A DNA stretch of 64,000 bases from assembly GCA_048939625.1 (NCBI GenBank), contig JBHLPH010000003.1, forward strand, positions 32,001 through 96,000, read 5' to 3'. Numbering within the stretch: position 1 is the first letter of the stretch; every line of letters starts with the position of its first letter. Below, one piece after another: positions 4,573 through 60,637 of this stretch. Origin of the DNA: Promethearchaeota archaeon (lineage in GTDB: Archaea > Asgardarchaeota > Hermodarchaeia > Hermodarchaeales > Hermodarchaeaceae). A program made the translations under genes and the position numbers. A model generated the notes under the pieces. That model searched no databases and was not told the origin of the DNA. It was given only the letters and a program-made list of their open reading frames with translations.

Positions 4573-5337
4573 TTAGGATTGCTGTATCCATCCTAAATTC
4601 TTCACAGTCAGTAATAATCGCTGCGTAATTGGGAGCGCCACAAGAATTCCGACCATGACTTGCATGAAATTGAATGGTAATTCTACGATAGCAGCATATT
4701 GGAAGATGAAGAATTCATAGAGGAAGTAGCCTGTCATCATGAAAAGACCACCGAGAAGCATAGCCGTTACATTCCAGGCGGCTTTGGCATCGTATTTAAG
4801 CGTTAGAAAAATGGTCATGGATCCAAGAAAGATTGCTAAGATAAACCAAACCCAAGAGGGGAGGAAAAAGGGGATTTCCCACCAAGGGCTTCCCCATAGA
4901 GCAAGTTCTCCGCTAAAACGGAGAACCCCAATTATCACCATACAAAGTGCTAATCCCAAACCTAAGCCAATTCCAAGGTACCGTAATTGCTTGGGTTCAA
5001 TGCGATCTCTTAAAGCCCAACTTAAGTAACCGACAATAAATCCTTCAAGACCTTTGATAATTAGAGTCCCGGGAGCATAGTGGGCATATCCAGTGGCTAA
5101 ATCTGCAATCATTGATCCAACGCCTCCTGCGAAGCTTCCGATAATTGGACCAAAAAGTATCGCAGTGATATAGACTCCGACTTCACCCAAATTGAAGTAC
5201 CCTTGGGTTGCAGGGACTGCGATCTGAAACGACACAGTTAGTACAGCTATTAAAGCCGTCATCAAAGCGGTAAGAGAAAGTAGAAGTGTGTTGGGCATTT
5301 GAGGAAGTAAAGATGAAATCCGTTTCATCATTCTCAC
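4573..5337 (-). CDS. ECF transporter S component (possibly for pantothenate/pantoate)
   Basis: GYFNLGE, AILFGP, GGVGSMIADL, YAPGTLIIKG motifs; multi-TM; downstream of a pantoate kinase paralog. Confidence 0.85.
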   Translation of the reverse strand: MRMMKRISSLLPQMPNTLLLSLTALMTALIAVLTVSFQIAVPATQGYFNLGEVGVYITAILFGPIIGSFAGGVGSMIADLATGYAHYAPGTLIIKGLEGFIVGYLSWALRDRIEPKQLRYLGIGLGLGLALCMVIIGVLRFSGELALWGSPWWEIPFFLPSWVWFILAIFLGSMTIFLTLKYDAKAAWNVTAMLLGGLFMMTGYFLYEFFIFQYAAIVELPFNFMQVMVGILVALPITQRLLLTVKNLGWIQQS

Positions 5338-58384: not shown

Positions 58385-58440
58385 CAAACGATTCGAGTAA
58401 TTGTTGGAGCTTTTTTTGATTTGGCGATTGACAAAAAGGT

Positions 58441-58512
58441 GGCGGCTCTAGTCCGCCCGTCGTTCACTTCATCTTGGTATCAGTGCGATCAGGTTTCCTC
58501 TTCATTGCCGCC
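58441..58512 (-). ncRNA. Candidate C/D-box guide sRNA (predicted target SSU rRNA Cm1402, E. coli numbering)
   Basis: Terminal stem GGCGGC/GCCGCC; box C AUGAAGA; D' CUGA; C' AUGAAGU; guide GAACGACGGGCGG complementary to the universal CCGCCCGUC; variant D box CUAGA; followed by a T-tract. Confidence 0.7.
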
Positions 58513-58534: not shown

Positions 58535-59149
58535 TTACTTAAGGGTTGTGAGCAGATTATCGATTTGCTGTTGAATTTGGTTTTGCACTTCACGAATCGA
58601 GCACGTTGCATCAATTATCGTGAAACCATTTTCTTGTGCCCTTTCAATGAAGATTTGTCTTACCTTCTCGAGGAAGGTGACATATTCGAATTTTTCTTTT
58701 GGTTTTGGTCTTCTCTTTCGTGCTAAAGCAGTTTTGGGGGCAATATCGAGCACGAAGGTGATGGTTGGAGTGAGGGCATACCGATTTAGGTTCTGCACCC
58801 ATTCGCGATCAAGTCCGGAAGAACATTGATAGGCAAAGGATGATTCAACATAGCGATCCGTGATGACGATTTGTCCTTTATCCAGAGCCGGCTGAATTTT
58901 GTTCAATGTATTATCAATGCGATCAGCTGCAAAAAGTAAGGCATCAATTGCAGGCGATACCGTTGTGTCTTGTAATATTTGCCGTATCAGCTTTCCAATT
59001 CGTTCATCTGTTGGTTCATGGGTTTCGACTACTTCGAACCCTTTTTTTCTCAGCCATTTGCTCAGTAATTTTGTGTGAGTGGTTGTACCACTTCCATCGA
59101 TTCCTTCTAGCGCAATGAAAAGTCCTTGTTGCATTTCAAGCACACTCAA
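58535..59149 (-). CDS. tmk: Thymidylate kinase
   Basis: EGIDGSGTTT, EPT, LLFAADR, DRY..SS.AYQ. Confidence 0.95.
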   Translation of the reverse strand: MSVLEMQQGLFIALEGIDGSGTTTHTKLLSKWLRKKGFEVVETHEPTDERIGKLIRQILQDTTVSPAIDALLFAADRIDNTLNKIQPALDKGQIVITDRYVESSFAYQCSSGLDREWVQNLNRYALTPTITFVLDIAPKTALARKRRPKPKEKFEYVTFLEKVRQIFIERAQENGFTIIDATCSIREVQNQIQQQIDNLLTTLK

Positions 59150-59219: not shown

Positions 59220-59735
59220 ATGAATGTCCAGCCACTATTTGCCTCTTCCGTCTTTACAATATCTTCGAACCTTGAAGTATACCAGGTAATCAATTATGAT
59301 TATTCTGATCCAGAAGGGGTGTACGCAGAGATTCTTGAAGATGAGGAAGCGGTCGAAACTGAAATCACCAAGATTCATTCTAACATGGCTGAATTTCTTG
59401 AAGCAGAAAAGGTGTATATTAACGGCACTCAAGTAAGACAAGAAATTGTGCATGTCGATATTGGATTGCGTGGAACACCTGAAATCGCGTATTTCCAATG
59501 GGTTATTCATTTCCAGGGTGCACCAATAAAGGATGAAAACATCTTAGCGAGTGATGTTGAAACAGAAGTAGCAGAATATGATATCGAAGTACTGTATTTG
59601 TTTCCAAAGAACACACGAATTCTTGAAGTCATCACTCCGATGGAATCTGAGATTCGTGGACCATTGTTTTTTGTTTGGGCACTAAAAGGGGATCTTGTTG
59701 GAGGACATGAATCAGTTCGATTCCGATTTACTTAG
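59220..59735 (+). CDS. Conserved archaeal hypothetical protein
   Basis: Acidic 171-aa ORF: Y.Y.DP...Y, NM..FL..E...ING, E.AEYD, G..VGG.E...F. Confidence 0.65.
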   Translation: MNVQPLFASSVFTISSNLEVYQVINYDYSDPEGVYAEILEDEEAVETEITKIHSNMAEFLEAEKVYINGTQVRQEIVHVDIGLRGTPEIAYFQWVIHFQGAPIKDENILASDVETEVAEYDIEVLYLFPKNTRILEVITPMESEIRGPLFFVWALKGDLVGGHESVRFRFT

Positions 59736-60637
59736 CGTTGAAGCAGCCGCCCACAGGAATAGCACCACTTAGTTCCTAGAGTGATTTTTGCTTGACAGTA
59801 AGGACAGATACCTTTTCCTTTCTGATCTGTTTTCTTCTTCTTACTAGAAGTAGATTCGGTTGGTTGGGTAAGAGGAGCGGCCACTGTTCCTAGGATTGAA
59901 CGAAGCCCTGCGATGATACTTGTTGTTTTATTGAGTTCATCGTCTATTGCCTTCAGCTGTTTATTCACATCCTTTTTTGATACCTCATCGATACGGGCGC
60001 GAATCTGAAGTGTCTCTTTTTCAAATTCGAGTTGTTGTTTACGCTCTTCTAATTTCGCTAGCCAACCATTTGCTTGGGAGAACTCATTTTCAAGCTGTTG
60101 ATTTGTTTCAGCTAGTTTACTTCCATACTCAGAGGACAACCGCTGATAAATCGCGTCATCAACTTCTCCAGATTTCCGAAGATCATCAAGACGTTGAATA
60201 CGACCTTCTTGGACTTTCTTTTCTTGTTGAAGTTGCTCAAGTGGTGTAATGGCTTTGTTTTCCAAGTCATCGATTTCTTTTGAAATAGGATCTAATCGGG
60301 TTTGTAGCTTTTCAGACTGGGATGTTGCCTCTTTTTCTGATAACTCGCCCACGAGTTGTTTTACTTTGATGGTTTCTTGCTCTTCATCAAGAGCGGCTTT
60401 TTGTGATCGAAGCCTCTCGAGTTTTCCGCGCATGATTAGGGCTGATTCTGCCATGGGAGGGATGGCTTCGACCTCTTTTATCAGTTCGTTTGATGGAGTG
60501 GGTGCTGCACTCGTTGTTTTTGGTTGAACAGCGGTCGCCATTCTTTGCCGGGCAGTTAGTGAAACTCCGCAATATGAACAGAACTTGGCGTTAGGCTTTA
60601 ATTTTCGCCCGCATTCGGGGCATTGTTGATTTGACAT
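59732..60637 (-). CDS. Zinc-ribbon-flanked CdvA-like coiled-coil protein
   Basis: N- and C-terminal CxxC...CxxC ribbons; central RLDDLRKSGEVDDAIYQRL...LEER...L..R..I.EVS pattern recalls the CdvA coiled-coil domain. Confidence 0.7.
   Translation of the reverse strand: MSNQQCPECGRKLKPNAKFCSYCGVSLTARQRMATAVQPKTTSAAPTPSNELIKEVEAIPPMAESALIMRGKLERLRSQKAALDEEQETIKVKQLVGELSEKEATSQSEKLQTRLDPISKEIDDLENKAITPLEQLQQEKKVQEGRIQRLDDLRKSGEVDDAIYQRLSSEYGSKLAETNQQLENEFSQANGWLAKLEERKQQLEFEKETLQIRARIDEVSKKDVNKQLKAIDDELNKTTSIIAGLRSILGTVAAPLTQPTESTSSKKKKTDQKGKGICPYCQAKITLGTKWCYSCGRLLQR

Follow-up and report, generated by a model that had tools for sequence, protein, structure and literature searches.

A conserved box C/D sRNA of Hermodarchaeota with a variant D box and a predicted guide to the 16S decoding site

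Introduction

Does a short, unannotated stretch of DNA beside a thymidylate kinase gene in a Hermodarchaeota genome encode a guide RNA for the decoding site of the ribosome? An earlier note on this DNA had read it as a box C/D sRNA with non-canonical boxes. It proposed that the second guide of the RNA directs methylation of C1402 in 16S rRNA, that the organism has G at 1408, and that the RNA may be an archaeal counterpart of the eukaryotic snR70/SNORD43 snoRNAs; the first guide was left unassigned. In bacteria, the same nucleotide receives the same 2'-O-methyl mark (PMC5053481, PMC2831307) from RsmI, a stand-alone protein enzyme that acts without a guide RNA. In eukaryotes, the snoRNAs of Rfam clan CL00059, snR70 (yeast Cm1638/1639) and SNORD43/U43 (human Cm1705, Arabidopsis Cm1641), address the same rRNA nucleotide with a D-box-proximal guide (PMC3511168).

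Here, we examine the element in its window, by which we mean the whole 64,000-nt stretch of contig JBHLPH010000003.1 that was analysed. The genome is a 2.31-Mb metagenome-assembled genome (MAG) of an uncultured member of the Hermodarchaeota (Asgard) and is 87.6% complete.

Results

The element has the anatomy of a box C/D sRNA

The minus strand of the window from 58512 to 58441 matches the RNA written out in the earlier note letter for letter over 72 bases. It reads, in order, GGCGGC, A, AUGAAGA, GGAAACCUGAUCGCA, CUGA, UACCAAG, AUGAAGU, GAACGACGGGCGGA, CUAGA and GCCGCC, and is followed by ACCUUUUUGU. The features of the element and its flanks are, in the direction of the minus strand:

58535-58543, minus strand: TATA-box-like motif CTTAAGTAA, 22 nt upstream of the sRNA, with a putative promoter role
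58507-58512, minus strand: 5' half of the terminal stem, GGCGGC, pairing with 58441-58446 and invariant in the genus
Minus strand, between the 5' stem half and the C box: single A
58499-58505, minus strand: C box AUGAAGA (consensus RUGAUGA), with A at position 5
58484-58498, minus strand: D' spacer and guide GGAAACCUGAUCGCA, 15 nt, without an assigned target
58480-58483, minus strand: D' box CUGA, as read in the sequence
58466-58472, minus strand: C' box AUGAAGU, which is AUGAGGU or AUGAUGG in relatives
58452-58465, minus strand: D spacer and guide GAACGACGGGCGGA, 14 nt, of which 58453-58462 pair with 16S C1399-G1408
58447-58451, minus strand: variant D box CUAGA, that is, CUGA with an A inserted at 58449
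58441-58446, minus strand: 3' half of the terminal stem, GCCGCC, completing the 6-bp stem GGCGGC/GCCGCC
58431-58440, minus strand: T-rich tract ACCUUUUUGU, a candidate archaeal terminator

The terminal stem is of the kind expected next to a C/D K-turn, and the C box and a D-side guide of at least 9-10 bp are likewise present. The C box departs from its consensus once, at position 5, and keeps the GA of the sheared pairs; the same deviation is found in Odinarchaeota and in other archaeal copies. The D' and C' boxes, which would form a K-loop, lie 7 nt apart, with UACCAAG between them. Two traits fall outside the norm of the archaeal box C/D sRNA class. The spacers, at 15 nt (D') and 14 nt (D), exceed the usual length of ~12 nt (relatives have 13-16 nt and 12-15 nt, respectively), and the D box is CUAGA instead of CUGA, with its GA still abutting the stem.

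No open reading frame of 40 aa or longer overlaps the element. A search expression for the complete order of C, D', C' and D boxes with a terminal stem matched the 2.31-Mb genome twice, whereas three shuffled genomes gave no match at all. At gathering thresholds, no Rfam family matches the element. In permissive mode, all matches are sub-threshold C/D-box families, the best being SNORD103 at 17.2 bits; the element reaches 13.8 bits (E 4.8) with SNORD43, whose cut-off is 45, and this match covers the D-guide half only.

Canonical C/D candidates are few in the genome as a whole, with 14 loose matches against ~7 in shuffled genomes. Two further candidate C/D sRNAs of the same genome (G000), outside the window, are a plus-strand locus at C36:37899-37960, which has a 9-bp terminal stem and reads AGUGACGA ... 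CUGA, and a minus-strand locus at C83:8768-8820, which reads AUGAGGA...CAGA...CUGAUGG...CUGA. A search of the genome for other sRNAs with a CUAGA or CCAGA box returned five candidates against two to five in shuffled genomes and so gave nothing beyond the element itself.

The element is conserved in its genus and in other Asgard groups

By DNA search, 11 more genomes of the genus proved to contain the element, and a covariance model built on those sequences showed that 13 of the 14 genus genomes carry it. In the genus alignment, 12 sequences agree fully in the stem, the boxes and the D-guide core CGACGGGCGGA, while the flanks are unalignable. The sole exception in the guide core within the genus is genome G011, whose copy (L078:1501-1575) reads CGACGGGCGAAA and then CCAGA; a G-to-A change and one extra A put its guide register one base off that of all other copies. 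A second subgroup of the genus combines the D box CCAGA with the C box AUGAGGA. The D' spacer is variable: positions 2-4 adjoining the D' box differ even between close relatives, and the second subgroup has an unrelated spacer (AAAGCAAUAGGGA).

With the covariance model, the sRNA was also recovered from the sister genus and from three more Asgard families, Odinarchaeota included. The guide and the D box of these copies read:

Sister genus: ...CGACGGGCGGA, CUGA, GCUGCU (...GGCGGA / CUGA / GCUGCU)
Family f2: CGACGGGCGAU, CUGA
Family f3: AUCGAUGGGCAGU, CCGA
Family f7: GCGACAGGCGGU, CUGA

Family f2 was identified as Odinarchaeota from the sequence identity of its G030 copy to an Odinarchaeota MAG locus (L115). 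In the copies of the sister genus and of all three families, guide position 5 lies opposite C1402. Across the five Asgard families, 94.6% of the cells of the terminal stem are paired and four of its six pairs have changed on both sides. For stem cells as a whole, 96% are paired and five pairs have changed on both sides; none of 500 shuffles reaches the observed percentage paired or the covariation score.

Together, the exact anatomy, the conservation and the absence of the architecture from shuffled genomes bear out the earlier reading: the element is a genuine, conserved and unannotated box C/D sRNA. The guide and boxes are kept in relatives, both in the genus and in further Asgard groups, and this was one of the points on which the earlier note had made its reading depend. 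The boxes it had called non-canonical, AUGAAGA and CUAGA, are there in the sequence, and CUAGA can now be described as a one-base insertion in CUGA.

The D guide matches the decoding site of relatives' 16S rRNA

We sought 16S and 23S genes in the organism's own genome assembly and found none, so pairing was checked on same-genus and same-phylum rRNAs only. In the genus, the family and other Asgard lineages, the 16S sequence at this site is ACCGCCCGUCGCUCC, and ACCGCCCGUCG with G1408 is found in 16S genes of the genus and the phylum, in agreement with the predicted G at that position. If the D box is taken to start at the C of CUAGA, 10 Watson-Crick pairs join guide positions 2-11 to C1399-G1408 in the 16S rRNA of relatives. 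Position 1 (A) faces A1398, and position 5 (G at 58456) faces C1402. Chance alone gives a best match of ~9 bp on average in 20 kb of target, which a 10-bp match exceeds only modestly, so the case rests on conservation. Thus, 10 bp with 1399-1408 and position 5 opposite C1402 in relatives support the target proposed earlier, and the D guide most likely directs formation of Cm1402 at the decoding site, as judged from complementarity and register. An alternative site for this guide, a 12-bp match (UCCGCUCGUCGU) at the variable tip of helix 44 in the 16S gene of G007 (L045:1245-1258), was rejected as species-specific chance, being missing from G005 and G016.

For the D' guide, we searched the 16S and 23S genes of genomes from the same genus and family, with their introns, and 13 tRNAs of its own genome. 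Its best match to rRNA or tRNA was 10 bp with two G-U pairs in the 16S 5' domain (UGAUUAGGUU), which we rejected as a target because 115 of 200 shuffled guides match or beat it. In the 16S and 23S genes of relatives and the tRNAs of the genome, the D' guide thus has no target above chance; it stays unassigned, as before, and is probably an orphan. Orphan guides are common in archaeal sRNAs (Lui et al. 2018).

As a separate observation, the main subgroup of the genus and the sister genus both begin their D' spacer with AAACCUG, which makes up its 5' half and is similar to the D' guide UAAACCCAGCA seen in Methanomassiliicoccales copies (A2 alignment; L112, L116, L132, L137 and L140).

The inserted D-box base is probably bulged

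The sister genus has CUGA at the same place, so CUAGA and CCAGA are CUGA with one inserted A. This insertion introduces a one-nucleotide uncertainty into the methylation ruler, C1402 versus G1401. The same RNP could have its ruler shifted or split by the inserted A: with UAGA or CAGA as the D box, the target would be G1401, or both G1401 and C1402 if two K-turn registers are used. The GA is fixed beside the stem, UAGA or CAGA can fill the D-box slots with G-U or G-C as the fourth pair, and the copy in G011 shows that register drift is possible inside the genus. There is also a precedent in yeast: van Nues and Watkins (2017, PMC5389607) describe extended or unusual D' boxes that adopt alternative structures, with methylation at two sites of a single target region. 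The yeast snoRNAs of that study, snR48, U18 and snR13, share with the element a D-type box of more than four bases that allows two registers with the C-type box. In contrast to the element, whose variant box is the terminal D box of an archaeal sRNA, theirs are internal C'/D' motifs of eukaryotic RNAs for which two-site methylation has been demonstrated.

The pairing of the boxes argues against a moved ruler. We counted box pairs in a 23-copy alignment of five Asgard families, which was fitted to the model and in which the box columns are unambiguous. All 22 distinct sequences have complementary bases at C-box position 5 and D-box position 2 (12 A-U, seven G-C and three G-U), whether or not the extra A is present. 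Odinarchaeota and f7 have A-U here, f3 has G-C and the sister genus G-U, while the two subgroups of the window's genus have A-U or G-C. With the A bulged, the C and U of the D box can pair with C-box positions 6 and 5. Because the complementarity holds with or without the extra A, the A is probably bulged and C1402 is favoured. Taking C as the first D-box base also gives the conserved pairing at positions 2-11, which is the register of relatives with a normal D box. We therefore regard a shifted or split ruler as unlikely, and the alignment favours a Watson-Crick pair at C5-D2 with the inserted A as an extra base and the ruler at C1402. We give a low probability, too, to a reading in which CUAGA or CCAGA together with a Watson-Crick 3b-3n pair makes a non-standard K-turn that moves the fibrillarin site (Gm1401, or G1401 and C1402), or in which the RNP is coupled to removal of the 16S insert described below.

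A hairpin insert adjoins the target in some 16S genes

Some Asgard 16S genes carry a hairpin-forming insert of 31-33 nt between A1398 (...GCACACA) and C1399 (CCGCCCGUC), immediately 5' of the guide target. Carriers belong to three families: G005 (L041) and G007 (L045) of the same genus, G016 (L037) of the sister genus and G029 (L040) of another Asgard family. In G005, the insert is on the minus strand at ~4870-4910 of the reverse complement (L041). Its stem shows compensatory differences between genomes, and its 3' end, GUGUA(G/A)A, is conserved. The insert is presumably a mini-intron; introns shorter than 50 nt have been described in 16S genes of Thermoproteales. A canonical bulge-helix-bulge intron was considered and rejected, as the predicted fold has no clean motif. 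The 16S gene of G005 (L041, G005:C71:619-4212) spans 3.6 kb for a 1.5-kb rRNA and so has several introns, one of which is a further insert in the helix 45 loop region, after GUAGGGGAA.

The position of this insert raises another reading of the element, in which the C/D RNP mainly serves as a chaperone that helps the 3' minor domain of pre-16S rRNA to fold or be processed and keeps 1399-1408 single-stranded beside the insert, with methylation secondary or absent. The insert ends exactly at C1399, the first paired target base, and the degenerate boxes and long spacers could reduce catalytic efficiency. The guide and its register are, however, kept in many archaea whose 16S rRNA is insert-free, and a register conserved relative to the D box would be needless for a pure chaperone. 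Nor did our inspection of the inserts and the sRNA alignment reveal any pairing between sRNA and insert that is conserved between subgroups, or any extra complementarity to the insert. We consider a chaperone role improbable. The complementarity of the guide lies wholly in the downstream exon, so the RNP could bind before or after removal of the insert.

The element has candidate transcription signals of its own

The thymidylate kinase gene (PF02223, E 3e-51) occupies 58535-59149 on the minus strand, and its stop codon lies 22 nt before the element. The element is convergent with a Roadblock/LC7 gene. Farther along, a 301-aa protein encoded on the minus strand at 59732-60637 has zinc-ribbon domains at its N- and C-terminus (PF13240 and others) and no other Pfam matches.

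In the window's genus, the motif CTTAAGTAA coincides with the final two codons of the thymidylate kinase gene and its stop codon. Sixteen genomes from two genera have the motif without variation, 20-22 nt upstream of the stem. In the sister genus, we found no plus-strand ORF of at least 50 aa that ends at CTTAAGTAA, and the upstream ORF is divergent; a stop codon therefore cannot explain the conservation of the motif there. We conclude that CTTAAGTAA is probably a TATA-like promoter element spanning -31 to -22 and centred near -26. T-rich tracts also occur downstream of the stem in most relatives, and the tract is likely to be the terminator of the sRNA.

We give almost no credence to the idea that there is no RNA gene here and that the GC stem and T-run are the terminator hairpin of the thymidylate kinase gene, with boxes and guide due to chance: the element does lie 22 nt past the stop codon and does have a T-run at its end, but in the sister genus no gene ends just upstream, so that it cannot be that gene's terminator there, its interior (boxes and guide) is conserved like the stem whereas the flanks are not, and the architecture is missing from shuffled genomes.

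The same genome encodes the proteins of a C/D RNP. Genes for fibrillarin (PF01269, 298.6 bits) and Nop5 (PF01798, 219.4 bits) are adjacent on contig 12, and L7Ae-family matches (PF01248) are found on contigs 19 and 73.

The guide occurs across archaeal phyla

We scanned one genome per species, 185,579 species in all, for the pattern C box...C' box...GACGGGCGRN-CUGA. At least 120 loci matched, and among the matches listed, 75 of 80 are archaeal by their record titles; by our own estimate, chance would give ~5 matches, mostly bacterial. Archaeal loci among the matches listed come from Thermoplasmatota (including Methanomassiliicoccales), Bathyarchaeia, other Thermoproteota, Nitrososphaerota, Korarchaeia, Methanomethylicia, Heimdall-, Odin- and Hermodarchaeota, and Iainarchaeum (DPANN). 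The element has GACGGGCG(G/A)N immediately 5' of the D box and downstream of the C' box, and its guide CGACGGGCGGA, followed by the C of the D box, is in the same register as in the 75 archaeal loci listed. With at least 120 loci, nearly all of those listed archaeal and spread over many phyla, the guide is pan-archaeal.

It is also not new. Hoeppner and Poole (2012, PMC3511168) equated sR12 of Pyrococcus and Sulfolobus with yeast snR70 and U43; sR12 (Gaspin et al. 2000, as discussed in PMC3511168) is predicted to guide Cm at the C1402 equivalent. The supplement of Dennis et al. (2015, PMC4644070) gives a '16S C1389*' prediction for two sRNAs and lists Sac-sR122 with a GCGAUGGGCGGC guide. A/G1395 in that work corresponds to E. 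coli A1408, so we read its C1389 as C1402. The papers searched for Asgard C/D sRNAs contained nothing specific to that group. The archaeal C1402 guide was thus already known, and the element adds a member.

Compared with the known archaeal C1402 sRNAs (sR12 and the C1389* sRNAs), the element has the same dual-box architecture and terminal stem and the same GACGGGCG(G/A)N adjoining a D-type box (D or D'), and position 5 likewise faces C1402. It differs from them in the inserted A of its D box (CUAGA/CCAGA), in A or G at C-box position 5, where a Watson-Crick pair replaces U-U, in its spacers of 15 and 14 nt (theirs are ~12 nt) and in its D' guide, which is unrelated to those of other phyla and for which we found no target. 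The element belongs, as a new member, to an archaeal family that is known and widespread; its lineage-specific D-box insertion is its sole unusual trait.

The proposed link to snR70/SNORD43 holds in part. The site is the same by register, but the counterpart is not a new one, given sR12 and the C1389* sRNAs, and its guide spans archaeal phyla. Guidance of methylation at the C1402 equivalent, as in CL00059, is predicted from complementarity and register, and the SNORD43 score of the element falls below the family cut-off. What sets the element apart from snR70 and SNORD43 is that it is not intronic, has a putative promoter of its own and possesses a second spacer and a complete C'/D' motif of the archaeal type. 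The guides are alike because the target is universal. Homology over convergence cannot be shown, and Hoeppner and Poole, who placed the SNORD43/snR70 clan in the last eukaryotic common ancestor, likewise found the two inseparable (PMC3511168). Since the guide is pan-archaeal and has been described before, it carries no special weight as evidence on Asgard-eukaryote ancestry.

Discussion

From the anatomy, conservation, complementarity and register of the element and from the protein genes in its genome, we infer its transcription, RNP assembly and methylation activity. The element would be transcribed independently as a box C/D sRNA of ~72 nt. L7Ae would bind at its C/D and C'/D' motifs, which would also bring in Nop5 and fibrillarin, and its D guide would pair over 10 bp (guide positions 2-11) with 1399-1408 of 16S rRNA. 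Fibrillarin would then 2'-O-methylate the nucleotide opposite position 5, C1402, in the decoding centre. The extra A of the D box is most likely bulged from stem II of the K-turn, which would leave the ruler unchanged. We hold this reading as a whole, that of an independently transcribed sRNA whose D guide directs Cm1402 with the extra A bulged and whose D' guide is an orphan, to be probable.

These results add an unannotated RNA gene to Hermodarchaeota genomes and a decoding-site Cm1402 guide that is kept across Asgard lineages and most archaeal groups. The variant D box offers a natural test case for how far the K-turn and the 'N+5' ruler tolerate an inserted base. More broadly, the conservation of this guide supports the view that guide RNAs are an ancient route to a mark for which bacteria use a protein enzyme.
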